Program-made: the position numbers and the translations under genes | Shown: in pieces, positions 15,292 to 29,221 of the stretch | Layout: every line of letters begins with the position of its first letter | Position numbering within the stretch: the stretch's first letter is position 1 | Virus record (IMG/VR): IMGVR_UViG_3300034069_000599 | Span: 1 to 39,044 of that record | From: a virus | Length of the DNA: 39,044 nt | Direction: 5' to 3' (one strand) | Notes under the pieces: generated by a model | Database searches by the model: none | The model's input: the letters and a program-made list of their open reading frames with translations, nothing else | Told to the model about the DNA's origin: nothing

Positions 15292-15644
15292 CCTTCTTGC
15301 AGATTATGGCGGTCCTCAACGCTGCCGCCTGTATTTCGCTAACCGTCCTTGTGACCGGCACAATGATGGCGTTTCGCGACCAGTTTATTTGGGTTGAGCG
15401 ACTAGGCATAGGTTTGATGGGAGGATCGTCTTTTCTGACGATCGCTCCGCTTGTTGATCTGAGTCGTGATGGAACGCCGTTCGATGCATGGCCGTCCTTT
15501 CTGCTGAAAATAGGATGCATTATGTTGTTCTCGGGCAGGCTGTATCGCTTGCTGCGGCATGAACAGGCAAATATTTTGCAAAAAAGGTTCGCCGCCGAGC
15601 ATTTGGCGGCGCGCGGCAAAGCTCCAATAAAGGAGGTCGAATGA
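15288..15644 (+). CDS. Membrane protein (118 aa, about 3-4 TM segments). Holin or antiholin candidate.
   Basis: ATGA overlaps at both ends (ATG 15288/TGA 15289-91 and ATG 15641/TGA 15642-44). TM segments are followed by a charged C-terminal tail. Lies immediately upstream of the endolysin. Confidence 0.5.
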   Translation: MTFLQIMAVLNAAACISLTVLVTGTMMAFRDQFIWVERLGIGLMGGSSFLTIAPLVDLSRDGTPFDAWPSFLLKIGCIMLFSGRLYRLLRHEQANILQKRFAAEHLAARGKAPIKEVE

Positions 15645-16165
15645 ACATCGACGAAATTCTTACCAACGTTCTCACCAACGAGGGCGGTTACGTCAACGAC
15701 CCCCGCGATTCTGGTGGGGAGACGAACTACGGCATCACGAAAGCTGTAGCGCGAGCGGCCGGGTACACGGGCGCGATGCATGACCTACCCAAGGCGACTG
15801 CGCTGGAAATCTACCGTGGGCAGTACGTCATCAAGCCGGGGTTCGGGCTAGTCGGCAACGTGTCGGGGCCCGTCGCGGCCGAACTGGTTGACACGGGCGT
15901 CAACATGGGCCCGGCGGTCGCGACCGGGTTCCTGCAACGCGCGCTCAACCTGCTTACCGACGTGCACCTTGTCGTGGATGGCCAATGCGGCCCCACGACG
16001 ATCGGGGCGCTTAAGGGGTTCATGACGGCACGTGGCAAGGAAGGCGAGCGACGACTGCTATCGTTGCTCAACGCGTTTCAGGGCGAGCGCTATGCTTCGC
16101 TGGCGGAAGGGCGGTCGGCGAACCGGGCGTTCATCTATGGGTGGCTGGCGAGGATCGCAGCGTGA
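15641..16165 (+). CDS. Endolysin, GH108 muramidase domain plus C-terminal peptidoglycan-binding (PG_binding_3-type) domain
   Basis: The N-terminal EGGYVNDPRDSGGETNYGIT is the GH108 signature with the catalytic Glu. VDGQCGPTTIGAL is typical of the associated PG-binding domain. AGGAGG lies upstream. No signal or SAR segment. Confidence 0.9.
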   Translation: MNIDEILTNVLTNEGGYVNDPRDSGGETNYGITKAVARAAGYTGAMHDLPKATALEIYRGQYVIKPGFGLVGNVSGPVAAELVDTGVNMGPAVATGFLQRALNLLTDVHLVVDGQCGPTTIGALKGFMTARGKEGERRLLSLLNAFQGERYASLAEGRSANRAFIYGWLARIAA

Positions 16166-17309: not shown

Positions 17310-17651
17310 TCATGTGTCCGTCCCCTTGTTCGCCAGTTCCAGCAGCACGTCGGCGTGGCAAGGCTGATCGAGCGGGCACCAGCAGGCGAGGTTCTTGCCC
17401 GCGAGCTTGTCGCGCGTGACCTCAAGGCGCTGCGGAGTGCTTATCAGCCAGCGATAGGCTTCCACGCACTCCCGCACGCTCGCAGGCTGGATCACGATCT
17501 TGTCTGTCGGGTCGTGGTCGTTGACGAAAAAGCGCATCTCGCCGACTTTGAATGGATTGCCCCAAAAGCCGGGCCTCGCCACGCTCACCGTGTTCTCCGG
17601 CATCTTCCAACCCTTTTTCCGAGATAGCTGGACGCGGATGGGGGCGGTCAT
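17310..17651 (-). CDS. DUF4326 domain protein (113 aa)
   Basis: ARPGFWGNPF...YRWL...LAGKNLACWCPLDQPCHADVLLELAN matches the recalled DUF4326 pattern (WGNPF ... GK.L.CWC ... CHADVL). ATGA overlap with the upstream methyltransferase. The longer 159-aa ORF was rejected. Confidence 0.7.
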   Translation of the reverse strand: MTAPIRVQLSRKKGWKMPENTVSVARPGFWGNPFKVGEMRFFVNDHDPTDKIVIQPASVRECVEAYRWLISTPQRLEVTRDKLAGKNLACWCPLDQPCHADVLLELANKGTDT

Positions 17652-18352
17652 GTGGCAAGTCTCTCGACATAAGCCATTTCGGTCGCCCGACCTTTTGTGC
17701 TTTTGAATGAGCCCAGCGGCTGGAACGGGAGCCATGAAGCGCCCTCGCCTTCGCACGCGATTAGCAGCCCAGATCGCGACCGGCACCATCGGCCGAGCCC
17801 GTCGAAATCGTGGAAGGGCACGCGATAGAAACGACCTTTGTCGCCATACGGCGGATCAACGAACCAAGTTGCGGCGACGTTCGGCGCCGCCTCGTAGCTG
17901 CCTTCGATCACGCGCCAGTCCGCAATTCGATCAAGTTGAGACGCGATGCGCTCCTTTGCGCGTGGTCCCCAGTTAAGCTGTCCGCGATCAGATCGAGCGG
18001 AGTACGCCGTTCGCGACTTTTTCGGCGTCGCGCTGCCGCGGTTGAGCCAAAAGCCGATTAGCCACTTGGCTTCTTGGCAGATGGCGTAATGATCAACACT
18101 GTCTCCGACTTCCGGCATCTCGGGCAACGCCATGATGTCGCTCGAGCTGGCGTCAATCAGGTAGCGCCACAGCCCGGCGATGATGGGGTCCCTGTCGACC
18201 AGCACCGCTTGGCTCACGCCGTAGAAACACGCGTACCCAGCCGCGCCCGCGAAAGGCTCCACAACAGATCCGCGGTCAGGCTCCGGGTAGTGCCGGGCGA
18301 TGTTCCACTTCGACCCGTAATACGGAAACAGCGGCTTGATTGGCCCCTTCAC
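17648..18352 (-). CDS. DNA N6-adenine methyltransferase, Dam (D12) class
   Basis: The N-terminal YYGSK, the EPFAGAAG (FxGxG AdoMet motif) and the catalytic FVDPPY, in alpha-class order. GTGA overlap with the upstream gene. Confidence 0.85.
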   Translation of the reverse strand: MKGPIKPLFPYYGSKWNIARHYPEPDRGSVVEPFAGAAGYACFYGVSQAVLVDRDPIIAGLWRYLIDASSSDIMALPEMPEVGDSVDHYAICQEAKWLIGFWLNRGSATPKKSRTAYSARSDRGQLNWGPRAKERIASQLDRIADWRVIEGSYEAAPNVAATWFVDPPYGDKGRFYRVPFHDFDGLGRWCRSRSGLLIACEGEGASWLPFQPLGSFKSTKGRATEMAYVERLAT

Positions 18353-18618
18353 TCCCCCGCCTCCATCGCGATCGGGGCGGGAGCGGCGGGGAGAGGCATC
18401 CAGTGGGTGGGGTCAAATGGAAGTCGACAACCCACTGCCGCATTGTCCGCCCACCAATTGCCAGTTTGGCCCAAGATGGTACTAGTTCCCCACTGACCCG
18501 AGCATATCCACGCACCACCGTGGTACTCGTCGCTGAACACGGCCAATAGGATATCAATCCCATCCCTCGGAGCCGCCTCAATCGGCTGCCATCCCTGAAG
18601 CGCGCTGTTCTCAGCCAC
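18349..18618 (-). CDS. DUF551 domain protein (89 aa)
   Basis: GWQPIEAAP...ILLAV...PTHWMPLPAAP matches the common phage DUF551 pattern (W.pi...P ... thWmPLP.pP). Confidence 0.7.
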   Translation of the reverse strand: MAENSALQGWQPIEAAPRDGIDILLAVFSDEYHGGAWICSGQWGTSTILGQTGNWWADNAAVGCRLPFDPTHWMPLPAAPAPIAMEAGE

Positions 18619-18796
18619 GCCCCTGCCCTCCCGTAAACGAGGCGGCAGGCAAAGCGCTCACCGCCCGCTGCATGTCGTTAAGCACCTTCTGATACTGAAC
18701 CGACGTCAGCGAAGCCCGAAACCCGCGAATGTGGGCGTGCAGGTCGGGTGGAATAGCGGCAGGTTGGGTGTACATAGCTTTTAGCCAAGGGGTCAT
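18611..18796 (-). CDS. Hypothetical protein (61 aa)
   Basis: ATGA overlap with the upstream small ORF (ATG 18796). The 108-aa extension in the ORF track has poor coding character. Confidence 0.5.
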   Translation of the reverse strand: MTPWLKAMYTQPAAIPPDLHAHIRGFRASLTSVQYQKVLNDMQRAVSALPAASFTGGQGRG

Positions 18797-18894
18797 GCAT
18801 CGGACTCCCCGTTCAGATCGCGGCGCATCCGTTCCCTGTCGTCGGGTGACATGGCGGCAAGCCGGGCGTGCATGGCGTTGAGGGTGGGAATCAT
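18793..18894 (-). CDS. Small hypothetical protein (33 aa)
   Basis: Translation: MIPTLNAMHARLAAMSPDDRERMRRDLNGESDA. Bracketed by ATGA overlaps at both ends. Confidence 0.4.
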   Translation of the reverse strand: MIPTLNAMHARLAAMSPDDRERMRRDLNGESDA

Positions 18895-18946
18895 GCGGCG
18901 ATCTCTCGTTTACGCTGGAGCGTAGCGAGGGTGGCAAACAAAACCA

Positions 18947-19633
18947 TCACCAGCCCTCCATTGGAAATTCGAGATAAACCTGCACCTGCCGGCGGATTTC
19001 ATTAGTGATGTTTGCCGCTCGATCGGTGTTCCGACTGACCCTGCCAAACCACCTCCAGCCGCTGCTGACAGCCCGCGTGCCCGTGTGAAAGCTATCGCAA
19101 TCAAAATATACTAGCGTACGGTCAGGTGTCTCGACGGCTTGCATATCGCCGGCTTCTAACAGGCGTTCAACTTCGGCGTGCCATCGGCGATAAATCAGTT
19201 CGCCATTGGGAACTTCAGGCATGACGCACGATCCAACCGCAAAACTGGTCGGCGCAACTGGCGCGTTGACCAATCCCAGAATGTGCTCACTGCGGTATTT
19301 AGGTGTGTCGTAATCCGGCTGACCAGCCGTGATAAAATGCCTGCCTGGCTGGATTGGAGGGCGGGGCACGTCGTCATGATGATAACCTGGTATGGCCGGA
19401 TACCAGCCCGGCATGAGCATATGCACGCGGCTATCAAACACCGCAGGCTCATCAAACCATTCGTCGGGAAGAGCGCCGACAAACTCTCGCGTAATCGGTC
19501 CACCCTTCTCGCGTGCGAACCGCAAGTCGCTATTGAAGAACATTGGCTCATCTTTGATTGCTTGATTGTTGATCCCAAGAGCGAAGGGCACCAGCGCGCT
19601 AAAACGACTGTCGAATCGCTTGTTGCCGTTCAC
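18947..19633 (-). CDS. Conserved phage protein with an HxD...H...RxS signature. Possible Fe(II)/2-oxoglutarate dioxygenase or cupin fold.
   Basis: PGWYPAIPGYHHDDVPR and DSFHTGTRAVSSGWRWFGRVS are spaced as in double-stranded beta-helix oxygenases. GTG 19633 forms a GTGA overlap with the upstream 39-aa ORF. Alternative starts are GTG 19657 and ATG 19543. It has visibly more A/T-ending codons than its neighbours. Confidence 0.6.
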   Translation of the reverse strand: MNGNKRFDSRFSALVPFALGINNQAIKDEPMFFNSDLRFAREKGGPITREFVGALPDEWFDEPAVFDSRVHMLMPGWYPAIPGYHHDDVPRPPIQPGRHFITAGQPDYDTPKYRSEHILGLVNAPVAPTSFAVGSCVMPEVPNGELIYRRWHAEVERLLEAGDMQAVETPDRTLVYFDCDSFHTGTRAVSSGWRWFGRVSRNTDRAANITNEIRRQVQVYLEFPMEGW

Positions 19634-19749
19634 GACCGCCCTCCCGTCGCAATCCACTGCCGCGAACCCGGCCAGCCGACGACGCGGCGACCATCGGGAT
19701 AGTAAAAGACGGGAACCGCCTCACCCATTTTTTCTTTTCGCGTCATCAT
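19630..19749 (-). CDS. Small hypothetical protein (39 aa)
   Basis: GGAGGC lies immediately upstream of the tandem ATG ATG. Translation: MMTRKEKMGEAVPVFYYPDGRRVVGWPGSRQWIATGGRS. The stop overlaps the next start (GTGA). Confidence 0.4.
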   Translation of the reverse strand: MMTRKEKMGEAVPVFYYPDGRRVVGWPGSRQWIATGGRS

Positions 19750-19826
19750 AGCCTCCATATGGTTGCCGTACGCGGTCTGATCGGATAGCCACCCAATCGT
19801 GGCGTAGCGTTCACCCCGCTATGTCC

Positions 19827-19856
19827 GCCGGGGCGCTCTCGACAAGCGACCCCGGC
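19827..19856 (-). other. GC-rich hairpin in the 122-nt spacer ahead of the low-GC3 gene pair
   Basis: GCCGGGGCGCT (19827-19837) pairs with AGCG-a-CCCCGGC (19845-19856). There is no U-tract, so it is not a canonical intrinsic terminator. Confidence 0.3.
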
Positions 19857-19871
19857 CCCACCTTCATGCGC

Positions 19872-20069
19872 TTACCTGGCACTCAGGTCAACCACCACAT
19901 CGCCGTCCTCTGCTACAGGCAGAACCTGCCAAACTGCATCGGCCATCCTCTCGCGCATTGCCTCGTCTAGCGTGACGGCGGCGCTTGTGTGGATCGTCAC
20001 GGCCAAATGGAAGGTATGCAGCTCGACCGGCGGCTGTTCGTGGGCGGTCATTCCATTATGGGTTGCCAT
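19872..20069 (-). CDS. Hypothetical protein (65 aa)
   Basis: GGAGGTG lies 5 nt upstream of ATG 20069. The 113-aa ORF-track version overlaps the upstream gene. Confidence 0.5.
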   Translation of the reverse strand: MATHNGMTAHEQPPVELHTFHLAVTIHTSAAVTLDEAMRERMADAVWQVLPVAEDGDVVVDLSAR

Positions 20070-20244
20070 GCGCCACCTCCCGCTCCAACCGCGCCAACTC
20101 GTCGCGAACCAGCGCTCCCCTGTCCCAATGCCCGCCAATGATCGCCACGGCCGGCACACTGCGATGCTCGCGGCCCATGGTGTCGACCAGCGGACTGTAC
20201 CGTGCCGCAACATTGGCGCGGGCGGTGGTGAGGTGGTTGGTCAT
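20056..20244 (-). CDS. Hypothetical protein (62 aa)
   Basis: ATGA overlap with the upstream stop (ATG 20244). Confidence 0.5.
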   Translation of the reverse strand: MTNHLTTARANVAARYSPLVDTMGREHRSVPAVAIIGGHWDRGALVRDELARLEREVAHGNP

Positions 20245-20642
20245 GGGCGGGGTTCCGGCTGGACCGGGAACGTCACCTCTTCATGTCGCCGGAAAATCAT
20301 GAACCCGACAAAGAAGCTGCTGTTCAAGGTCAGACCCGCCCAGAATCGAACTCGATGCAAACTGAACCGCCGGGTTCCCTTCAACGCGCCCAATTCGGTC
20401 GAAAGCGCCAGCGGTTGCCGTGGCGAGCGCGCCACGATGCGCGGCCGAACTTCTTCGACAATCACAACATAGGTGAACGCCAGCAGGATTAATGTTGCAG
20501 CCACCCCGACGACCAGCAGCACGCCACTGACCGCGACGAGCGCCCTTGGTGCATCTTGGCTTAGGATCAGGTACGCCCCGCCCAGCCCCAAAGCCGCCGA
20601 GCCCATGACGGCGGCAAGTCTTGCCCATGCGGTGTCAGCCAT
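20241..20642 (-). CDS. Membrane protein (133 aa, 2 N-terminal TM segments)
   Basis: AAVMGSAALGLGGAYLIL and ALVAVSGVLLVVGVAATLILLAFTYVVIV. ATG 20642 overlaps the upstream stop by 8 nt. Confidence 0.6.
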   Translation of the reverse strand: MADTAWARLAAVMGSAALGLGGAYLILSQDAPRALVAVSGVLLVVGVAATLILLAFTYVVIVEEVRPRIVARSPRQPLALSTELGALKGTRRFSLHRVRFWAGLTLNSSFFVGFMIFRRHEEVTFPVQPEPRP

Positions 20643-20904
20643 CGCTCTTCTCCGATGCGAGGATATGGGTGCGGACGGCGAGGCCGAGCGGGGTGAGGCG
20701 GTAGTGAGTCCGCTTAGGTTGGCCCGGCTGCCAGCCACGTTCGCAGATGTCCGGGTGCCAAAGGACGAAATTGGCCGGCGTTTGTGCGGGGAGTTGAGGG
20801 GGTGCCGTTTGCCAATCAGCGTTCAGCGCGCACACAAGTATCCGCTGCGCCTTCGTCAGCCCCTTCGCCACGCTCTCCACCAGCTTGGGATCGGGGGCGG
20901 TCAT
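20635..20904 (-). CDS. Hypothetical protein (89 aa). Possible winged-helix DNA binder.
   Basis: ATGA overlap with the methyltransferase stop. The C-terminal HYRLTPLGLAVRTHI resembles a wHTH wing. Weak evidence. Confidence 0.55.
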   Translation of the reverse strand: MTAPDPKLVESVAKGLTKAQRILVCALNADWQTAPPQLPAQTPANFVLWHPDICERGWQPGQPKRTHYRLTPLGLAVRTHILASEKSDG

Positions 20905-22001
20905 GCGGCTGCCCTCACGTCACCATAGACGGCGGACAGCGCGGCCTCGGTGCGTAATATGGCTCGCCCGATCGCCTCGGGTATCTGCGGGATCACCGCG
21001 TCACCGAACGCCTCGACGGCAAGGCTGGCAGCAGACTGCCCCTTGCCATCGCCGACCTGAACGCGAGTGCCAGCCAGCCGGGCGGATAGCCCATCATCCA
21101 GCCGTAGGTGATCGGCAAGGTGCGCGAGGGACCAGTCATGCCGGCCTCGGTCAGCATCGCCGCGATCTGGCGCGCGTAGGCCCATTTGTCCGGTGCCCGC
21201 CCCGTCATAACACCGTCCAATACCGCGTCCATCGTCGGCGATTTCCGCTTGTCGTAAGCCGGGCTCCATGCATCCATGCGCTTGTCGCGCTTGGTCGGCG
21301 TCGGGAGCTTTTCCTGCGCCACCTGCATGATATGGCGCACCGTCCCCATTCTCTCGATGTCGCCGTGTCCGCCTGCCTTCATGTCCGACGCTCGCGGCGT
21401 CGCGAGTATCTGCCGGAACGGGTACGTCGAACCCGCCCCACCCCCGGCTCCATCCCGCATCCCGTCCGACGCCATCGGGGTTGGCAACCTGTGCAAGGTC
21501 GCATCCGATGACCCAAGCGCGGGGACGTTCGTGATTGGCACCGACGTCTTCAGCACGAACCACGAACGGCCAGCAGGCGTAGCCGAGCGCTTCCAGTGCA
21601 GCGAGAACGGCGTCAGCCCCCCGAGTTCGGAGATTAGCGCTGTTCTCAAGAGCGAACCAACGAGGTCGGACTTCTCCGATGATACGGGTGGCTTCGAAGT
21701 AGAGACCCGACCGCTCGCCCTCGACGCCTTTGCCTTTGGTGTTGGCGGAGCTGATATCTTGGCAGGGAGGGGAGCCGACGACGACGGACGGAAGCCGTCC
21801 AAGATCAGCGCGAAGTCGGTCTGCCGTAAGGGTGCGGACATCATCGTATAGCCTGACATGAGGATTGTTCTCGGCATAGACGGCCCGGCGCCATGCCTCG
21901 ACTTCGCACGCCGCGACCGTCGTGAAGCCGGCGCGGTGCATCCCGAGCGACCAGCCTCCCGCCGCGGCGCTAAACAGGTCGAGCACTTCCATCCGGTTCA
22001 C
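20901..22001 (-). CDS. DNA (cytosine-5)-methyltransferase. The ORF is open, but the conserved motifs are split between two reading frames (see findings).
   Basis: In this frame: motif I DLFSAAGG, motif IV GSPPCQDIS, motif VI ENS, motif VIII ERPRAWVIG and motif X FGDAVIPQIPEAIGRAI. The TRD/motif IX-like blocks (LPTPMASDG, LATPRASDMKAGG, LPTPTKRDKR, MMGYPPGW) are in the neighbouring frame (ORF 20993-21877). AGGAGG lies 7 nt before GTG 22001. ATG 21992 is an alternative start. Confidence 0.8.
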   Translation of the reverse strand: MNRMEVLDLFSAAAGGWSLGMHRAGFTTVAACEVEAWRRAVYAENNPHVRLYDDVRTLTADRLRADLGRLPSVVVGSPPCQDISSANTKGKGVEGERSGLYFEATRIIGEVRPRWFALENSANLRTRGADAVLAALEALGYACWPFVVRAEDVGANHERPRAWVIGCDLAQVANPDGVGRDAGWSRGWGGFDVPVPADTRDAASVGHEGRRTRRHRENGDGAPYHAGGAGKAPDADQARQAHGCMEPGLRQAEIADDGRGIGRCYDGAGTGQMGLRAPDRGDADRGRHDWSLAHLADHLRLDDGLSARLAGTRVQVGDGKGQSAASLAVEAFGDAVIPQIPEAIGRAILRTEAALSAVYGDVRAAA

Positions 22002-22363
22002 GCGCCCACCTCCTGCGCTGCGAGGGCGCGTAGGGCGGCGGCGGTCAGGGCGAGCGCGGGGGTGGCGGCGAAACGACACCTCGGCTTGTCACCTGTTACC
22101 GGTTCCAGTTTGCCATCGGGATAGAGCCAAGCTGTCCAGTCGCCCTTCGCGCGCAGGGTGGGGTGATCGTGCTGCGACAGGTCGCCGATCCGCCACCCCT
22201 CCGGCACCAGCGTTATCGCGGCGTCGAGAGAAGCGGTGTAGGCGGGAATGCGAACTTGCGGATCGTACCCAACCGCGACGGCGATTAGGCGTTCCAACAG
22301 AAAGGACGACCTCTTCGCCTGTTCGCAGCGCTCCGCCAGCGCCGGCAGGTCGTCACGCTTCAT
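21998..22363 (-). CDS. Hypothetical protein (121 aa). Possibly a phage ABA-sandwich-like domain.
   Basis: GGAG lies upstream of ATG 22363. IPAYTASLDAAITLVPEGW resembles the recalled Phage_ABA_S pattern. Weak evidence. Confidence 0.6.
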   Translation of the reverse strand: MKRDDLPALAERCEQAKRSSFLLERLIAVAVGYDPQVRIPAYTASLDAAITLVPEGWRIGDLSQHDHPTLRAKGDWTAWLYPDGKLEPVTGDKPRCRFAATPALALTAAALRALAAQEVGA

Positions 22364-22721
22364 AGGGCGTCTCCGATGTGGTGGGAGCGTTCGGTACGAT
22401 TCGGAAAGCAGCGCGGCGCTTTTGTACCTTCACGGCCCGAAACATGCGCAGGTCGTCGTCAACTGCTCTTTGGCCGCGATCGTCACGAAAGCTGACCGGA
22501 TGGCCGTTGATGGCTACGATATTCCAAGCGCTCAGGTCATCTTTAGACCGCGACGAAAACGCCCTGCCTTCCGGGTCTGGAAGCCCCCAGGCTCCGCTCC
22601 AATACGCAAAGGTGACCGTTGCACCATCGACACGAACACGATCGCCGGCTTTGAGAACTGCTTTCGCTCGTTCGGTCGCTCGGTCGAAAGCGGCGCGCGC
22701 ATTTGGCCCAAAGACGCTCAC
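22353..22721 (-). CDS. Hypothetical protein (122 aa)
   Basis: GTGA overlap with the upstream stop (GTG 22721). The longer 149-aa ORF overlaps the previous gene. Confidence 0.6.
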   Translation of the reverse strand: MSVFGPNARAAFDRATERAKAVLKAGDRVRVDGATVTFAYWSGAWGLPDPEGRAFSSRSKDDLSAWNIVAINGHPVSFRDDRGQRAVDDDLRMFRAVKVQKRRAAFRIVPNAPTTSETPYEA

Positions 22722-23575
22722 GACCGCTCTCCCGTCTCTGCTACGGGCTGGTGGGGATGCAGGGCGGTGAGGCGGCGGGCGAGCGTCGCGCGGATCGTGC
22801 AAAGCTTGGCGTGCAGTGACTGATCAATACCGTAGAAAGCACGTGATTTGGCTCGCTCGTTGATCTCGTCGATCAGCACGATCGCCTCACGCGCCGCTAG
22901 CTCCACCTCCCCCACGCCATCCGAAGCGGCAGGGGCGGCTATGGGCTGGGTGGGGGTGTAGGCGATGATGTCGACATCGGCTTGGCCATCAGGATCGCCT
23001 TCGGGTTCATGCTTCCAAACGTAATCTGGCCCCGGCCATGGGCACCCATCGCGAAGCAGAACGGTCCCACCATTCCAGTCTCTAGGCTCGTTCGGATAGT
23101 CGGGATGTTCCAGGCCATAGGGCACCATGCCGGCGAAGATATTGTTCCTGGCGTCAGGCATATGATTCTCCCCTACCGTCGCAGCCTGTTCTTCTGCCGA
23201 GGGGGTGGCGAGGTTGAGGATCGCATCAGCAAGATCGAAGCACCGATCCACAACGTGCGTCGGGATGATATCCATGATGCGCGCAGCGAACTCGTCTGAC
23301 TGCCATTCTCCATGCGGTCGGCGCGGTTCGCCTGTAGTCGTGCCCAGACCCGCCAGCGCAATCAGACCGGCAACCTGGTCCCGCAACGCTTCCACCCCAC
23401 CGCTCGCAACGCGGGCTTCGGGCTGGGGCGTGGCGCGGGTGTTTCCGGCAACGAAAGCAGCAACGAGCCGGTCGGCACCATGCGTGTCGGCCGCGCTAGG
23501 ATGGTTCTGCGCGACCCACTCCCTCGCCCGCTGCTCTAGCCGCTCATCCGATACGGGGGGCGTGTTATCCGGCAT
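22718..23575 (-). CDS. Hypothetical protein (285 aa)
   Basis: ATG 23575 overlaps the upstream stop by 11 nt. High GC3. No motif recognised. Confidence 0.7.
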   Translation of the reverse strand: MPDNTPPVSDERLEQRAREWVAQNHPSAADTHGADRLVAAFVAGNTRATPQPEARVASGGVEALRDQVAGLIALAGLGTTTGEPRRPHGEWQSDEFAARIMDIIPTHVVDRCFDLADAILNLATPSAEEQAATVGENHMPDARNNIFAGMVPYGLEHPDYPNEPRDWNGGTVLLRDGCPWPGPDYVWKHEPEGDPDGQADVDIIAYTPTQPIAAPAASDGVGEVELAAREAIVLIDEINERAKSRAFYGIDQSLHAKLCTIRATLARRLTALHPHQPVAETGERS

Positions 23576-24398
23576 GGGGAGTGTCCTTCAGGGCAGCGCG
23601 GTCCAAGCGCTCAATCTCGGCGACGATCAGCGCGCCAGCTTTGACGAGGCTGCGGCGAGCATCAGACGGCTTGAACCACTTCGGTTCCCACGGCCAAAAG
23701 CCGATGGGATCAGCAGCAAAGTAGCTTCCTTCCGTCGCAGCCGCGAAAGCATAGGCGCCCGCAGCGGCGGCAATCTCCCCGTTGCCGTGCTGGTCGTCGT
23801 GATCTGGTATCCAGCCCTCATCACTGATTTGACGCTGCCGTTCATGCGCGATGTCACAAATTGCCCGCCCCTCATCCGCTAGGGGAGCGGCTTGGGTGAT
23901 CGGGAGGGCGCGGATGCGATCAGCCACGGTCTGGCAAGCATCAATCCACATCGGTTCTGCGGCTTCGTCACGGCAAGCCTCTCCTTCCGCCACCTTCGCA
24001 GCCGCCTCCCGCATAGCTGCTGCGTCTGTGGGGGCTTGGGTCGCGGGGGCGGCGGTGTTGATTGCGTGAACGATTGCCTCCACAATGGCTTCGTCCTCGT
24101 CCGACGAAACGAACATGTCGAGCGCTTCACAGGCTGCGGCCATCTGTTTGGGAGACAACCCGCGCGGCACGACCACCGTCTCCCCTGCCGCTTCGGTAGC
24201 GCGCTCGGTGGTGAGGCGGTGGCGGGCGAAGGCTTGAGCCGTAGGGCCTGCGTCCCACTCGCCGCTTCTCAGTTCGGCTATGCGTTGCCGCTCGAATGGG
24301 GTCAGACTATCACCGCTAAGAAGTAGAAAGTCAGCTGCCGCATCACGATCCGCCTGCGTCACTACGGCAGCTTCACGGTTCTGGGTGGGGTCGGTCAT
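23565..24398 (-). CDS. Hypothetical protein (277 aa) with a conserved phage C-terminal domain
   Basis: ATGA overlap. The C-terminal block HDDQHGNGEIAAAAGAYA...WPWEPKWFKPSDARRSLVKAGALIVAEIERLDR looks like a recurrent phage domain that I cannot name. Confidence 0.7.
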   Translation of the reverse strand: MTDPTQNREAAVVTQADRDAAADFLLLSGDSLTPFERQRIAELRSGEWDAGPTAQAFARHRLTTERATEAAGETVVVPRGLSPKQMAAACEALDMFVSSDEDEAIVEAIVHAINTAAPATQAPTDAAAMREAAAKVAEGEACRDEAAEPMWIDACQTVADRIRALPITQAAPLADEGRAICDIAHERQRQISDEGWIPDHDDQHGNGEIAAAAGAYAFAAATEGSYFAADPIGFWPWEPKWFKPSDARRSLVKAGALIVAEIERLDRAALKDTPHAG

Positions 24399-25102
24399 GA
24401 CCGCACCTCCGCATCCGCTGCCAACACCGCTTCCGGATCAGCAGACCCGAACAGCGGCAGGAAGAAAAACGGCTGCCCGCGTTCGCGCATCACTCGCGCG
24501 CCCATGATTTCAGCCGTTGCACCCCCGGCGGCGTCCCTGGCGGCGTTCCAGGCGGCGTTCCAGGCGGCGTCCCTGGCGGCGTCCCTGGCGGCGTCCCTGG
24601 CGGCGTCCCAGGCGGCGTCCCTGGCGGCGTCCCAGGCGGCGTTCCAGGCGGCGTCCCAGGCGGCGTTCCAGGCGGCGTCCCTGGCGGCGTTCCAAGCGGC
24701 GTTCCACTGCTCTACAGTCATTCGGTCAAGGTGACGCCAGAACGCCAGAATGACCGCAGCCTGATCGCCGATCACCTGTTCGGGGTTGGTCAGGACGATT
24801 GCCGGCGCTCCCTCGGTGCTGTCGTTGACATTTCGCAGCAGGATCGCGTGAGCCCTGCTGATACCGAGCAAGTCAGCAACGGCGCGATCGGCCTTGCTCT
24901 GATCGGCAGCGTTAAGCTGTTTCGCCGTCCATCCGCCTAGAAGATGCAGCGCTTGGCCTTGAGCGCACATACAGCCGATGTTGCCCGGGTCGGCCTCATA
25001 AGCCGGCAGGTCGACAAGCTTTCCCTTATAGGGATGGCCTTCCGGCGATTGCCAGCGGGCGATCAGGTCGTCAATTGTCGTGATTTGTTGAGTAGCGGTC
25101 AT
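24395..25102 (-). CDS. Protein (235 aa) with a C-terminal array of 15 tetrapeptide repeats (AAW[ND]/AARD)
   Basis: GGAGG lies upstream of ATG 25102 (MTATQQITT...), with an ATGA overlap with the upstream gene. The repeats are encoded by 24527-24706. The ORF-track 303-aa version has a junk N-terminus. Confidence 0.7.
   Translation of the reverse strand: MTATQQITTIDDLIARWQSPEGHPYKGKLVDLPAYEADPGNIGCMCAQGQALHLLGGWTAKQLNAADQSKADRAVADLLGISRAHAILLRNVNDSTEGAPAIVLTNPEQVIGDQAAVILAFWRHLDRMTVEQWNAAWNAARDAAWNAAWDAAWNAAWDAARDAAWDAARDAARDAARDAAWNAAWNAARDAAGGATAEIMGARVMRERGQPFFFLPLFGSADPEAVLAADAEVRS
24527..24706. repeat. 15 tandem copies of a 12-bp unit (GGCGGCGTYCCW), in frame within CDS 24395-25102
   Basis: Counted directly. 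Units differ only at 2-3 positions, giving codon sets for W/R and D/N. Confidence 0.95.
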
Positions 25103-25299
25103 GCAGGCCTCCGTAGATCGGCGAGGGCGCGGGTAAGGTCCATGCTGGCGCGGCGGATGGCACCCTGCTCTCGGGGGAAATTGTCGTGCGTGAAATTGTG
25201 CCCGCCAGACACATACGGGCTCGGCTCGGGCAGCTTTTTCACGCGCATAATAAATCGCTCGGCCTCCGCCACGGCGACGGCAAGTTTGTCGCGGTTCAT
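25099..25299 (-). CDS. Hypothetical protein (66 aa)
   Basis: GAGGTG lies upstream of ATG 25299. ATGA overlap with the downstream gene. Confidence 0.55.
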   Translation of the reverse strand: MNRDKLAVAVAEAERFIMRVKKLPEPSPYVSGGHNFTHDNFPREQGAIRRASMDLTRALADLRRPA

Positions 25300-25360
25300 G
25301 CTTCACCTCGGGCTTGGCTGGCGCGCAGGGCGACAGGCGGATTGAATGATTGAGTAGCGG

Positions 25361-25540: not shown

Positions 25541-26616
25541 ACTTCGGCTCCGTCGTGCTGGTTGCCGTGGTCGGCGTCGGTGCGGCCTTCGGGCTCGAAC
25601 GGCACGTCATCGGACATGGTAGCGACTTCATCGGCCACGCGGCACAGCATCTGGATTTCGTCCATGATCGGCTTGACAACCGCGCGATGTGGTTTGCCGT
25701 CATCGCTTTGCCACCATGCGGTGAATGCGGCCGTCCCATCCCGCGCCTTATCGCGGACAAGGTCCATGACCTGCTTCTGCTTCTGTGCCTCGCCTTGGCT
25801 GTTCGCCCACTCGGCCATGGCGGCACCGGTCGCCTCGCTCATGGGCTTCTTCGGGTCAAACAGACCCTTGAACTGGTCGGCAACCTTGATCTGGTGAACG
25901 GGGCAGCCGGGCGCGGACGGATCAAGAATGACCATCGCCGTCATCTCGAACATCAGGTCCGCATCGCTGGCGGGGTCCCATGGCACGTCCGACCGGCGGG
26001 TTTTCGTATCGCGCGCGTTGACCGAGGCACGGCCGTCTTTTTTCTGCATCACCGGCTTGGCGCGGGTGCAGATAATGATGTTGGTTTTCGCGCGAACGAT
26101 ACGATCAATCAGCCGCCGGTAGCGCGGCTTGACTTCCGCCCATGCGAGCTGACTGAACTTGGCCGGGTCAATTTCCCAACGGCCGTTCGCGCGGGCCTGA
26201 GCCTGTTGCACCAGCCGGTCCAGGACCTGAGCGTGTAGGTCAAGAACGCCGCCGACGCCCTCCCAAGCGTGGCTGAAACTGTCCATCACCAGCACCGGCA
26301 GCTTGGCAGCTTCGGCAGCGTTGATGACCTCAATCCACCGCTCAGGGCCGAAGCCGACCAAATCACCGCTTGCGTCGATGGCGGTGAAGTCGAAGTGCAT
26401 CATCTCCGGGAAAGCCGCTTTGTAATGCAAGGCGCGGTTGTTCTCGGTGTCGACGTAGCCGATCGGTGCGTCGTTGCGACCGGTAGCGCGCTGCGCCATC
26501 CCGCGCGCGACCCGGAGGGCGGTAAACGTCTTGCCGGTGCTGCTACCGCCCGATAGGCCAAGGGCGATCGTCAGCGGCGTTGTAATTTCCGTGACGGGAA
26601 CGAAGCGGATGCTCAC
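25537..26616 (-). CDS. RecA-fold P-loop ATPase, Sak4/AAA_24-like putative recombination protein
   Basis: Walker A GLSGGSSTGKT, and a Walker B-like LPVLVMDSFSH. GTGA-coupled directly downstream of the YqaJ exonuclease. At 359 aa it is longer than typical Sak4 proteins. Confidence 0.65.
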   Translation of the reverse strand: MSIRFVPVTEITTPLTIALGLSGGSSTGKTFTALRVARGMAQRATGRNDAPIGYVDTENNRALHYKAAFPEMMHFDFTAIDASGDLVGFGPERWIEVINAAEAAKLPVLVMDSFSHAWEGVGGVLDLHAQVLDRLVQQAQARANGRWEIDPAKFSQLAWAEVKPRYRRLIDRIVRAKTNIIICTRAKPVMQKKDGRASVNARDTKTRRSDVPWDPASDADLMFEMTAMVILDPSAPGCPVHQIKVADQFKGLFDPKKPMSEATGAAMAEWANSQGEAQKQKQVMDLVRDKARDGTAAFTAWWQSDDGKPHRAVVKPIMDEIQMLCRVADEVATMSDDVPFEPEGRTDADHGNQHDGAEV

Positions 26617-27353
26617 TGGAATGTCTCCCGAAAAGTGGTGAGTATGGCGGCGATCTTCGCTTCCGCAGCTTCGGACGCTTCTCGGATCGCCGCCTGAATT
26701 TGATCGTCGGGGTGAACTCGGATTACTGCCATCGGCAGACCAGCCGAAAAGCTGACGAAATCAATCCATTGCCGCTCGGTCACCAGTAGCCCCGTCTGGT
26801 GCTGCATTAGATACTCGGGCGGAATGGTGCCGTTCAGCAGGTGCTCGATCAGGGTTTCGACCTGAAATTTCTGCCGGCGTGATTTGCATTCGATCGCGCC
26901 ATCATGGCCGACAAGCCCGTCCGGTGAGTAGCCAAGCGTGTAGCCCCACCGATTGTTCGTGACGAAACCGCATTCGATTACCGGGGCGTAGCGCTCGGCA
27001 TAAATCGCCCGCGCCTCCACCTCGTCGTTCTGGCCACGAAGCATGTCGTTGGTGACGAACATTGGCTCGACGTTTTTTGTCAGCCGCTGCGCCGCCAGCT
27101 CGTAGATGTGTTTGCGGCAAGCGTCGTCGTCCGCGACGACCACCCACTCGCGTTGCTTGTAGGGCTCGCCGTTTTTCTTGACGCGGGTTTCCTCCTTGGG
27201 AGGCGGCGATATGATGAGGCGCATCTCGCTAGCCGTCAGCAGCCCACACCGGGCTTGCAACCATTGCTCCGACCCTTGGTCGAAATTGGCGTGGTACGTG
27301 ACATACGGCTTGTCGGCCGGGCTGTACGCGGTGAAGGGGGCTGCCTGGTTCAC
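26613..27353 (-). CDS. YqaJ-like (lambda Exo-type, PD-(D/E)xK) recombination exonuclease
   Basis: QGSEQWLQARCGLLTASEM (YqaJ N-motif) and SPDGLVGHDGAIECKS (D...E.K active site). GTG 27353 forms a GTGA overlap with the upstream 70-aa ORF. The 365-aa ORF-track version was rejected. Confidence 0.8.
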   Translation of the reverse strand: MNQAAPFTAYSPADKPYVTYHANFDQGSEQWLQARCGLLTASEMRLIISPPPKEETRVKKNGEPYKQREWVVVADDDACRKHIYELAAQRLTKNVEPMFVTNDMLRGQNDEVEARAIYAERYAPVIECGFVTNNRWGYTLGYSPDGLVGHDGAIECKSRRQKFQVETLIEHLLNGTIPPEYLMQHQTGLLVTERQWIDFVSFSAGLPMAVIRVHPDDQIQAAIREASEAAEAKIAAILTTFRETFQ

Positions 27354-27562
27354 CGACTCACCCCCGCCCAAAGCCGACCCACCGCGTCCCAAGCCGAGAA
27401 TGTGATGCGTGTCGCTACATTCCAAACCACGTCTGCAGCCCGGGTTACAGCGTCCCAAGCCGAAACCGCAGCGCGCGTCACCACGTCGGTCGGCTCGCGC
27501 CACCAGCCGTGGAGCAGGACGAGGCCGATGAAGCCGGCGGTTATGAGGAGGGGGCCGGTCAT
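27350..27562 (-). CDS. Small membrane-anchored protein (70 aa)
   Basis: ATGA overlap at ATG 27562. N-terminal TM segment GPLLITAGFIGLVLL. Contains an internal near-repeat, SAWDAVTRAADVVWNVATRITFSAWDAVGR. Confidence 0.5.
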   Translation of the reverse strand: MTGPLLITAGFIGLVLLHGWWREPTDVVTRAAVSAWDAVTRAADVVWNVATRITFSAWDAVGRLWAGVSR

Positions 27563-28044
27563 GCCGCTTTCTCCAAAAACGAGGCGTTGTGCTCGTCGGT
27601 GACGATCTGAACCGCCGCGTCGACGCTGATGGTGCTTTCACCCAACCAGTCGTTGAAGTCGTCCGCTTCCGCCGTCTCGTCGTCGTTGTTGCCAATGCCG
27701 GCGCGTTCATCGGCGATGAAGTTGTCGCGGATGCCGTCGAGCATGTCGAACAGGGCGTTGCGGGCTTTGGCGACCTGGACCCGAGCCTCGCGATAGTCGC
27801 GTTCCTGCCACGTCGCAGGATGGCTGGTTAGGCCCCTGCCAGCTGCAACCAGTGCAGTGAGCAACGGCGCATCGGCCGCATCCTCCAACACGAACATCGC
27901 CTTGATGATCGGCCGAGCGTGATCCACCCACTTGTTGCAGGCGAGCAGCTTGGCCGGGTCGTTGGCATAGCCGGGCATCGCACCGCCGCGGTCGGCAATC
28001 AGGGTTGCGGCGTCGGCCTGGTGGATGGGGCTGTGCAGGTTCAC
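27559..28044 (-). CDS. Hypothetical protein (161 aa) with an acidic C-terminal segment
   Basis: GTGA overlap at GTG 28044. Contains NNDDETAEADDFNDW. No motif recognised. Confidence 0.65.
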   Translation of the reverse strand: MNLHSPIHQADAATLIADRGGAMPGYANDPAKLLACNKWVDHARPIIKAMFVLEDAADAPLLTALVAAGRGLTSHPATWQERDYREARVQVAKARNALFDMLDGIRDNFIADERAGIGNNDDETAEADDFNDWLGESTISVDAAVQIVTDEHNASFLEKAA

Positions 28045-28247
28045 TTGCCCGCCTCCCCGTCGATCAGAAACCGCTCAACCACCGCCGGGCGATGAAACGC
28101 CGACGCAATGGCGGCATAGGCGTTACGGGTGCCGGCTTGGTTGGCCTCGCTGACCTTGAAACGCATGCCCTCCGCTTGTGCGCGGGCTTCGGCGTAGCTC
28201 GGGTCCGGCTTGCGGGCGTGAAAGGCGGTGATGGGCTGGTGTGGCAT
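28041..28247 (-). CDS. Hypothetical protein (68 aa)
   Basis: ATG 28247 shares its A with the upstream TGA. GTG 28250 is an alternative start. Confidence 0.55.
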   Translation of the reverse strand: MPHQPITAFHARKPDPSYAEARAQAEGMRFKVSEANQAGTRNAYAAIASAFHRPAVVERFLIDGEAGK

Positions 28248-29221
28248 CACGCGGCTTCCACCAGCTTGCCGGCGTTAGCCACATACCAAGTGCTGGCCTG
28301 CACACCGTCACGCCCGACGATGCCAGCGGCAACCGAGATGATGTTGTGGTCGTCATCGCGCTCAACAGCGAACAGCGCATTGCCATCGGCGCCCATGACC
28401 TTGCCGGCATAGCCGGACGACATGGCCGCGCCTTGCCGGCCCGTGGCCGATGCCGCGCCTTGCCGGCCCGTGGCCGATGCCGCGCCTTGCTCGCCCGTGG
28501 CCGATGCCGCGCCCCGCGTGCCCGTGGCCAATGCCGCGCCCCGCGTGCCCGTGGCCGATGCCGCGCCTTGCGTACCCGTGGCCGATGCCGCGCCTTGCCA
28601 GCCCGTGGCCAATGCCGCGCCTTGCCAGCCCGTGGCCAATGCCGCGCCTTGCCAGCCCGTGGCCAATGCCGCGCCTCGCTCGCCCGTGGCCAATGCCGCG
28701 CCTTGCTCGCCCGTGGCCGATGCCGCGCCCCGCGTGCCCGTGGCCGATGCCGCGCCCCGCGTGCCCGTGGCCGATGCCGCGCCTTGCCAGCCCGTGGCCG
28801 ATGCCGCGCCTTGATCAATCGTTACGTGCGCGTCATCCGACTTGGTTGCGCGCGACCAAACATAGTCCCACGCGCGCTTGACCAGCTCGCCGAGCGAGAC
28901 CTCAAGCTCAATCGTGATGGTAGCCGACGCGATCTTGATGTCGTCGTCGCTGTCAGTCGCGCCCGCCTGAACCACGTCGTGAAACCGTGAACCCGCCGGC
29001 GCGTAATAGCCAAACACCGACAACGGATGCGCGTCGCGCGTGCATGCGTGAAAGCCGCTGCGGCAAGCCTTGACCGGACCGTCCAGAGTGTAGGTCTGGC
29101 CCGCCGCGAACTGATAGCCCCGACACGTCAGGTCCGAGTTGAAGCCTTTAATGCTATGGACGATTGCCGGGGCTGAGCCCGCCTCCCCCGCCCGTTTACT
29201 CGCTTCCGCCGCTGTCACCAC
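28247..29221 (-). CDS. First gene of the early-left operon. The N-domain resembles DUF7666, followed by about 15 nonapeptide repeats (xxGAA[SL]ATG) and a C-terminal domain.
   Basis: GGAG lies 7 nt before GTG 29221. N-terminal [20 protein letters not shown]...CRSGFHAC. The repeats are encoded by 28425-28812. The C-terminus ends ...[22 protein letters not shown]. Confidence 0.75.
28425..28812. repeat. About 14.4 tandem copies of a 27-bp unit (GCCGCGCCTTGCCGGCCCGTGGCCGAT and variants), in frame within CDS 28247-29221
   Basis: Counted directly: 14 full units over 28425-28802 plus a partial unit. Variation is concentrated in the two codons preceding GAA[SL]ATG and in the S/L codon. Confidence 0.95.

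Follow-up and report, generated by a model that had tools for sequence, protein, structure and literature searches.

A nested second reading frame in the C5-cytosine methyltransferase gene of a phage accessory region that also encodes a predicted PhyH-like oxygenase

The distal end of a long minus-strand operon in a viral sequence of 39,044 nucleotides (IMG/VR record IMGVR_UViG_3300034069_000599; hereafter the window, meaning this whole stretch) encodes an N6-adenine and a C5-cytosine DNA methyltransferase, a predicted Fe(II)/2-oxoglutarate (2OG) oxygenase and a DUF4326 protein within 4.7 kb, and raises the question of whether these genes make up one DNA-modification pathway. A first-pass annotation had suggested that they might, reading the C5 methyltransferase and the oxygenase as a module like those of the TET/JBP family, which would oxidise 5-methylcytosine (5mC) to 5-hydroxymethylcytosine for further hypermodification. 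The open reading frames (ORFs) of the window were listed and searched against Pfam, PHROGs, NCBIfam and PADLOC, and selected proteins were also searched against the PDB. All the genes named in that annotation were recovered on the minus strand, at or near the positions it had assigned to them, and to these can be added further small ORFs between the oxygenase and C5 methyltransferase genes and a second conserved reading frame at 20993-21844. The analysis presented here suggests that the 4.7 kb is probably not one pathway, and is best described as a mosaic accessory tail composed of two orphan methyltransferases, of which the C5 enzyme would be of the two-chain M.EcoHK31I type, a stand-alone oxygenase and DUF4326.

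The C5-cytosine methyltransferase gene (20901-21992, minus strand), the reading frame of which is designated A, encodes a predicted product of 363 aa that matches PF00145 (E = 3.4e-30) and phrog_363 (E = 1.3e-50). Its likely start is the ATG at 21992 (MEVLDLF), rather than those at 22001 or 22079. The translation contains motif I (FSAAAGG), motif IV (PPCQ), motif VI (ENS), motif VIII (HERPRAWVIG) and, at its C-terminus, motif X (HLRLDDG...GDAVIPQ; GDAVIPQIPEAIGRAI). The match to PF00145 is restricted to profile positions 1-164 of 324, corresponding to motifs I-VIII, the methyltransferases HaeIII, HhaI and 3g7u in the PDB align solely to residues 2-165, and the alignments obtained from Pfam, NCBIfam, PADLOC and the PDB all end at approximately residue 165. 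Between motifs VIII and X, frame A encodes a 130-aa linker in which 59% of the residues are G, A, D or R, and the chain that carries motifs I-VIII contains neither a recognisable target-recognition region nor motif IX.

The second frame, designated B (20993-21844, minus strand; alternative starts at 21841 and 21877), lies wholly inside A in the +1 frame and would encode a protein of 283 aa, a candidate beta chain. It matches phrog_1008, labelled 'DNA methyltransferase' (E = 1.9e-21), a match that was found with the +1-frame ORF 20993-21877. The predicted product comprises, in order, a leader rich in S, P and A, a conserved LVGSLLRTALISEL...HWKRSATPAGRSWFVL block, three xTP-x-A-x-D modules (LPTPMASD, LATPRASD and LPTPTKRD) and a final segment, LPITYGWMMGYPPGWL, which resembles motif IX (WMMGYPPGW; family pattern LPxTYGWMMG[FY]PPGW). 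B has 345 homologues, mostly devoid of Pfam domains, and a profile built on it matches 1,057 cluster representatives at E <= 1e-3 (clusters at 50% identity), most of them 180-420 aa long and matched from the N-terminus; a Pfam domain was absent in 9 of 10 sampled matches. Family members have a median length of 323 aa and contain 2-9 xTP units each, and they commonly present an N-terminal 'PARTS/PAKTS' motif, which corresponds to motif IV, PCQD(F/I)S, read in the +1 frame. B-like ORFs were found only within C5 methyltransferase genes, and a tblastn search of the phage collection with a distant B-like protein (P0353) returned no match.

The evidence that both frames are maintained comes from a comparison of related loci, comprising 75 loci from IMG/VR and 46 of 49 loci from bacterial genomes, mostly of Alphaproteobacteria, Sphingomonas, Brevundimonas, Paracoccus and Rhizobium being examples. 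Neither frame is interrupted across the overlap in about 70 of the 75 IMG/VR loci, in three Rhizobium phages and in most of the 46 genome loci, following a common pattern in which A, with motifs I, IV, VI and X, and B, with LPTP modules and WMMG[FY]P, both stay open. The third frame of the same DNA contains a mean of 13.5 stops (6-17). The Rhizobium phages (RHph_N2, RHEph18 and RHph_X2_25) present the same two open frames as the window, and A alone is annotated in them. When the synonymous codons of B are permuted, 3.8 stops are expected in A per locus over the region conserved in B, the mean probability of an open frame being 0.026, as compared with the 61 of 62 loci in which frame A is open through the B-coded region. 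Frame B, for its part, is open over the catalytic region of A in all 62 loci, against an expectation of 0.61 stops per locus.

The start signals and codon usage of the overlap point in the same direction. The ATG of B is kept in 64 of 66 non-identical loci and is formed within the conserved Y-D-D-V codons of A by any of three synonymous routes, TAT use being 76% at the B start site versus 41% elsewhere, and in most loci a GGAG sequence, made by a GGA glycine codon of A, is located approximately 9 nt upstream of it. The normalised third-position entropy of conserved A residues is 0.80 (N-terminal) and 0.70 (C-terminal) where A stands alone, as opposed to 0.50 (catalytic region) and 0.39 (C-terminal region) under B, and falls to near zero beneath the invariant blocks of B, so that synonymous variation in A is suppressed under B (Mann-Whitney p = 5.7e-6 and 4e-7). 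The G+C content (GC) of third codon positions is 0.80 in frame A at the N-terminus and in the middle region switches to favour B (0.83 vs 0.56); conservation of this middle region is likewise about twice as high for the translations of B (110 bits) as for those of A (57 bits). In Bacteroides phage BKO1-TP3, the gene of which has a GC of 46%, a B frame of 320 aa lies within an A frame of 389 aa, 23 stops interrupt the third frame, and none of 500 shuffles left either frame open. Given this nested layout at 46% GC, the effect is independent of GC content. The layout of the window is found also in Edwardsiella phage eiAU and, overall, is conserved in more than 100 independent assemblies, with about 120 related loci keeping both frames open. 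On these computational grounds, the C5 methyltransferase gene is dual coding, with B nested in A. A run of six G residues (21617-21622, minus strand) is located within the dual-coding stretch of the window and is missing in the homologues; it could constitute a hotspot for frameshift errors or for phase variation.

What, then, does the nested frame contribute? Most likely, the C5 enzyme is a two-polypeptide methyltransferase of the M.EcoHK31I type. In M.EcoHK31I, the alpha chain carries motifs I-VIII, motif X and the target-recognition domain, and the gene for the beta chain, which bears motif IX, is nested completely in the alpha gene and read in another frame (PMC2836561; PMC3404938). Natural two-chain C5 methyltransferases are described as rare exceptions, two of which are named (PMC3404938). 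As in M.EcoHK31I (YGGCCR), the predicted alpha chain of the window has motifs I-VIII as well as X, and the candidate beta gene lies inside the alpha gene in a different frame; since the layouts match, a heterodimer is proposed. In such an enzyme, alpha (frame A) would provide the catalytic large domain with motifs I-VIII, to which motif X would be tethered by a disordered and poorly constrained linker, and beta (frame B), started at the Y-D-D-V ATG, would supply the variable target-recognition region, in the form of the LPTPxAxD modules, together with motif IX. The two systems also differ, the likeness being judged from the published layout. The window enzyme is a phage orphan and not part of a restriction-modification system, and its putative beta chain is longer and modular and appears to hold the whole of the variable target-recognition region.

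Several observations weigh against this interpretation. The target-recognition domain resides on alpha in M.EcoHK31I, whereas the stretch of alpha that joins motif VIII to motif X in the window is a linker under weak constraint, with an off-frame codon signature and about half the conservation of B, which makes the analogy inexact. M.EcoHK31I has motif IX on its beta chain; B has a motif-IX-like segment, and the assignment of target recognition and motif IX to B draws on that motif resemblance, the PHROG label and analogy. B has no match in Pfam or the PDB, and the AlphaFold2 model of B alone is of low confidence (predicted local distance difference test, pLDDT, 48.8). The window's own Shine-Dalgarno-like element before B is weak (AGG only). 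Lastly, the dual coding is a computational result that concerns predicted products, and the heterodimer and the placing of target recognition on beta are inferred.

Some of these same observations would suit a different reading, according to which B does encode a protein, but one with a role other than that of a methyltransferase subunit, such as an overprinted regulator or anti-defence factor, and alpha works by itself, its brief conserved stretch W...HLRxDDG serving for minimal target recognition. The lack of a Pfam or PDB match or a confident fold for B is compatible with this possibility, as is the fact that alpha keeps motifs I-VIII as well as X and that its match to phrog_363 covers residues 26-381 of the 392-aa ORF translation queried. 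An alpha chain acting by itself, however, would have to do so without motif IX, and solved methyltransferases align only to its residues 2-165. B, moreover, has WMMG(F/Y)PxGW, a motif-IX-like sequence, at its end and is matched by PHROGs that bear the label DNA methyltransferase, ORFs like it were found only within C5 methyltransferase genes, and in Mycobacterium phage Sassafras the equivalent frame runs on into motif X. A role for B outside the methyltransferase is therefore considered unlikely, if worth bearing in mind.

The Sassafras gene also connects the proposed two-chain enzyme to the second natural arrangement of this kind. M.AquI is naturally split in the variable region into two chains (PMC3404938); its alpha chain ends after motif VIII and its beta chain has motifs IX and X, whereas in the window it is again the alpha frame that carries motif X. 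The Sassafras locus is M.AquI-like, with an alpha frame that ends after motif VIII and a +1 ORF that holds the variable region, motif IX and motif X, and a single frameshift would be enough to interconvert M.AquI-like and M.EcoHK31I-like layouts. In this phage (gp71/gp72; positions 960-2049 of the locus examined), gp71 stops past motif VIII and the +1 ORF includes FPEWMMGWPAGW; because this ORF is open from an earlier MDLFSG, the annotated start of gp72 (1657) looks to be placed too far downstream. Another variation is seen in eiAU (positions 1225-2643 of the corresponding locus), where the nested B reaches the downstream N6-adenine methyltransferase gene gp15 (2098-2643) without a stop; B is in the frame of gp15 with no stop between them, and a read-through fusion of beta with this Dam-type enzyme is therefore possible.

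A further alternative to the two-chain enzyme is a single-chain C5 methyltransferase produced by two programmed frameshifts, from A to B (+1) after motif VIII and from B back to A (-1) after motif IX, with no separate beta chain. The A-B-A composite does yield the canonical order of motifs I-VIII, variable region, IX and X, and in three proteins from the databases (P0164, P0225 and P0285) A is fused to B. The position of the join varies among them, however, lying ahead of PCQ, at ENS or late in the linker, and PCQ or ENS is missing from two; presumably, they are frameshift mutants or sequencing errors. This mechanism is rendered highly improbable by four lines of evidence: A remains open through the B-coded region, and B through the catalytic region of A, neither of which it requires; B has a conserved ATG with GGAG upstream; purifying selection acts on B well 5' of the putative shift site; and no X_XXY_YYZ heptamer is present in either frame, the sole homopolymer being the non-conserved G6 at 21622.

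The second question concerns the oxygenase gene (18947-19633, minus strand), 1.3 kb from the C5 methyltransferase gene, which encodes a protein of 228 aa with an HxD...H...RxS pattern and a match to phrog_1843 (function unknown; E = 2.6e-68). A total of 1,259 homologues were identified, the best 120 at 64-79% identity and none with a Pfam domain or name. In 34 homologues, H85, H86, D87, D88, H183, R194, R198 and S200 are invariant; the candidate metal ligands are H85/H86-x-D87/D88 and H183, and R194 and R198-x-S200 are candidate 2OG binders. An AlphaFold2 model based on the alignment of these 34 sequences (pLDDT 87.2; predicted template-modelling score, pTM, 0.85) places H183 and R194 on consecutive predicted strands. 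Foldseek comparison of the model against the PDB identified proline hydroxylase H11, HygX, SnoK, AviO1, EvdMO1, GriE, KanJ and HalB, with probabilities of about 0.99 for the top neighbours (0.94-1.0 over many 2OG oxygenases) and template-modelling (TM) scores of about 0.35. Single-sequence and profile searches of the PDB, as well as searches of NCBIfam, gave nothing relevant, so that only the fold comparison was informative, and a search of BFVD returned uncharacterised viral proteins only, plus weak matches to 'phytanoyl-CoA dioxygenase'.

The model bears out the earlier suggestion of a double-stranded beta-helix (DSBH) Fe(II)/2OG oxygenase. The guess at the fold was right, the nearest folds being PhyH-like 2OG oxygenases. 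The family is not that of TET/JBP, however, and the substrates of its nearest relatives are other than DNA. The top 50 matches in the PDB are chiefly PhyH-like oxygenases acting on amino acids and antibiotic scaffolds, and no TET, JBP or AlkB structure is among them. When the 34 family members were compared with Pfam at an E-value of 10, neither Tet_JBP nor any other 2OG family was matched. The protein is accordingly classified, on the basis of its model, as a stand-alone predicted PhyH-like Fe(II)/2OG oxygenase outside the TET/JBP family. With the PhyH-like enzymes (H11, HygX, SnoK, AviO1, GriE and KanJ) it has in common the HxD...H triad and an Arg located 11 residues past the distal His; it differs from them in lacking detectable sequence similarity, and the modest fold match, at a TM score of about 0.35, tells against the assignment. 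It also differs in belonging to a phage-specific and unusually strongly conserved family with a long invariant insert (residues 74-115), for which model confidence is below that of the rest. This stretch reads PGWYPAIPGxHHDDVPRP...TAGQPDY, and AlphaFold2 confidence drops below 50 only at residues 99-104; its invariance suggests a conserved partner or substrate. The substrate itself is evidently conserved and would probably be a small molecule or a host component, and the oxygenase would be unrelated to the methyltransferases.

The oxygenase family occurs in 473 phage records, the majority of them from phages of Escherichia and Aeromonas with genomes of about 160-175 kb (61-67% identity); one large phage examined is a Mosigvirus, in which the oxygenase gene adjoins nudE, e and denV. 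Mycobacterium and Gordonia phages carry homologues at about 30% identity, and no obvious homologue of the 228-aa protein is present in the e.1-e.8 region of T4, the sole part of that genome inspected. Identity of at least 64% is retained between T4-like coliphages, Aeromonas phages and the window phage, the relatives of which are prophages of Alphaproteobacteria, and the family is a worthwhile biochemical target. Literature searches found no paper on this phrog_1843-type oxygenase family.

What defines the TET/JBP modules of phages is an oxygenase that belongs to the TET/JBP family, accompanied by a C5 methyltransferase that co-evolves and by enzymes for tailoring (Burke et al. 2021, PMC8256090). 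That such modules exist, that the window likewise places a phage Fe(II)/2OG oxygenase with a DSBH fold and the HxD...H...RxS pattern near a C5 methyltransferase, and that the closest relative has a C5 methyltransferase two genes from its oxygenase all lend the idea of 5mC oxidation some appeal. Among the features that could be assessed here, namely family membership, nearest folds, co-occurrence with a C5 methyltransferase and tailoring enzymes, none was found. Unlike the enzymes of those modules, the window oxygenase is not TET/JBP-like by sequence or nearest folds. Its neighbourhoods at 80 IMG/VR loci, which took in flanks of up to 10 kb and totalled 1.39 Mb, were scanned for C5 methyltransferase motifs with a relaxed pattern, by which the window and its closest relative were detected as positive controls; a stricter pattern requiring FxGxG agreed with it, and no C5 methyltransferase was found in any of the 80 loci. 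The window's Dam-like, DUF4326 and DUF551 genes were likewise absent, by tblastn, from all 80. Conversely, in the 75 loci carrying this C5 methyltransferase family, neither the oxygenase nor the Dam-like gene was found, and DUF4326 was present in two. Clustering of the neighbours at 74 oxygenase loci revealed no universal partner, the only recurrent context being T4-like synteny (nudE, lysozyme e and denV), with T4-like phages being where the family is commonest. No glycosyltransferase or kinase tailoring family was detected in 17310-25306.

The one locus that speaks for a link is the closest relative, designated L209, a prophage contig of GCA_942647055.1, in which a C5 methyltransferase and a PF05869 Dam gene lie two genes upstream of an oxygenase 79% identical to that of the window. 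It leaves some small probability to a functional connection between oxygenase and C5 methyltransferase. Both methyltransferases, however, belong to families other than those of the window, the C5 enzymes being non-orthologous, with 35% identity over the N-terminal domain, and a shared slot for accessory genes fits this arrangement better than an enzymatic partnership. Taken together, these results leave scarcely any room for the TET/JBP-like module put forward in the first-pass annotation. What 17310-21992 holds is a loosely assembled set of phage accessory genes rather than a pathway for 5mC oxidation, and nothing in these genes leads one to expect hypermodified cytosine in the phage.

As to how far the nested layout extends, the notion that the second frame is merely an artefact of GC-rich off-frame ORFs or sequencing frameshifts, to which a window of 60-65% GC with many spurious long ORFs might invite, is effectively refuted by the stops in the third frame, the number of assemblies conserving the layout, the BKO1-TP3 shuffles and the synonymous suppression in A. 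Nested layouts were seen in phages of Proteobacteria, Bacteroidota and Actinobacteria, and with the roughly 1,000 clusters (50% identity) that match the B profile, the window C5 enzyme is probably one member of a large unannotated family. That nested +1-frame beta genes are general in a large clade of C5 methyltransferases from phages and prophages, where they would mostly have escaped annotation, M.EcoHK31I being no one-off, is a proposition for which we regard the chances as evenly balanced. The GenBank records checked (the three Rhizobium phages, BKO1-TP3 and eiAU) annotate the alpha frame alone, metagenome gene callers choose one frame or the other of the C5 gene, and the literature searched contained no paper dealing with nesting of genes in the C5 methyltransferases of phages. 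Should such nesting indeed prove widespread, it would provide a set of natural split methyltransferases and a clean case of long, same-strand dual coding in double-stranded DNA phages, and the LPTPxAxD units of the beta chain (2-9 per protein) would form a modular, expandable array that sets target specificity. A practical consequence is that codon-optimised cloning of the annotated ORF would destroy beta, probably resulting in an inactive or non-specific enzyme. The single-chain C5 methyltransferase of L209 (5390-6640), which is of a different kind, also presents a long protein-like ORF (...FWTLSTSEFHSDAVACSLSDVLETGDVPERYFLSATACRGILRRAAK...) when motifs IV-VIII are read in the +1 frame; other families of C5 methyltransferases may accordingly contain conserved +1-frame ORFs too.

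The N6-adenine DNA methyltransferase gene (17648-18352, minus strand) encodes a protein of 234 aa, in which EPFAGAAG (motif I) is N-terminal and DPPY (motif IV) C-terminal, the order of the alpha class. It matches the PADLOC MTase_II family PDLC03340 over residues 8-224 (E = 3.3e-35) and phrog_56, falls just below the cut-off for Pfam D12 (20.2 bits, cut-off 22; E = 5.4e-4) and gave no match in a sequence search of the PDB. It resembles the orphan Dam-type N6-adenine methyltransferases of phages in its alpha-class order (FxGxG ... DPPY), its small size and the lack of a cognate endonuclease, and differs from them in being only marginal to Pfam D12 and in falling in the compact type II family PDLC03340. 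No nuclease match in PADLOC, Pfam or PHROGs was obtained for the ORFs beside either methyltransferase, a search that could overlook divergent endonucleases, and ten small neighbouring ORFs tested yielded no restriction-enzyme or other PADLOC match. The initial description of two orphan methyltransferases, an N6-adenine enzyme with DPPY and a C5 enzyme with PCQ, ENS and GDAV, with no detectable restriction partner nearby, consequently holds. Self-protection from host restriction is the usual inference for orphan phage methyltransferases, and most likely both enzymes methylate the phage DNA to escape it. As orphan enzymes, the two are of an ordinary kind.

The DUF4326 gene (17310-17651, minus strand), the ATG of which overlaps the stop codon of the gene upstream (ATGA), was also correctly recognised at the outset. 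Its product of 113 aa, with GNP and CHA motifs, matches Pfam PF14216 far above the cut-off (81.8 bits, cut-off 25; E = 5.8e-23) as well as phrog_464 (E = 4.2e-33). DUF4326 has been proposed to form a clade of rhodanese-phosphatases for which the substrates would be ADP-ribose phosphates and not DNA (PMC9503650), and the gene probably belongs to NAD/ADP-ribose counter-defence, a conflict system distinct from DNA modification. The assignment of a DUF551 gene stands in part. The small protein of 89 aa encoded at 18349-18618 (minus strand) does have a weak match to PF04448, which spans the C-terminal half only and lies 0.5 bit under the cut-off (21.5 bits vs 22), together with a match to phrog_60 (E = 1e-6).

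These genes are embedded in a phage genome or prophage with an endolysin gene at 15641-16165 (plus strand) and tail genes upstream of it. The long minus-strand operon includes a YqaJ-type exonuclease (26613-27710) and an AAA_24-like ATPase, and 17310-21992 forms its distal end, with densely packed ORFs, several of which have stop/start overlaps of 4-8 bases. No match in the four family databases was obtained for the ORF at 18611-18937 (minus strand), of at most 108 aa and uncertain start codon, or for the small minus-strand ORFs listed in 19630-20904 (19630-19758; 19872-20213 or 20056-20244; 20241-20642; 20635-20904). The product of 20241-20642 is hydrophobic and possibly a membrane protein, and the ATG of 20635-20904 (20902-20904) shares bases with the stop codon at which the C5 methyltransferase gene ends. 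Elsewhere in the window, 24395-25306 (minus strand) encodes a predicted protein with a long tandem repeat of AAWNAAWDAARDAA-type units that matches only PHROGs of function unknown, and the early-operon protein encoded at 28247-29221 (minus strand) combines DUF7666 with collagen triple-helix repeats.

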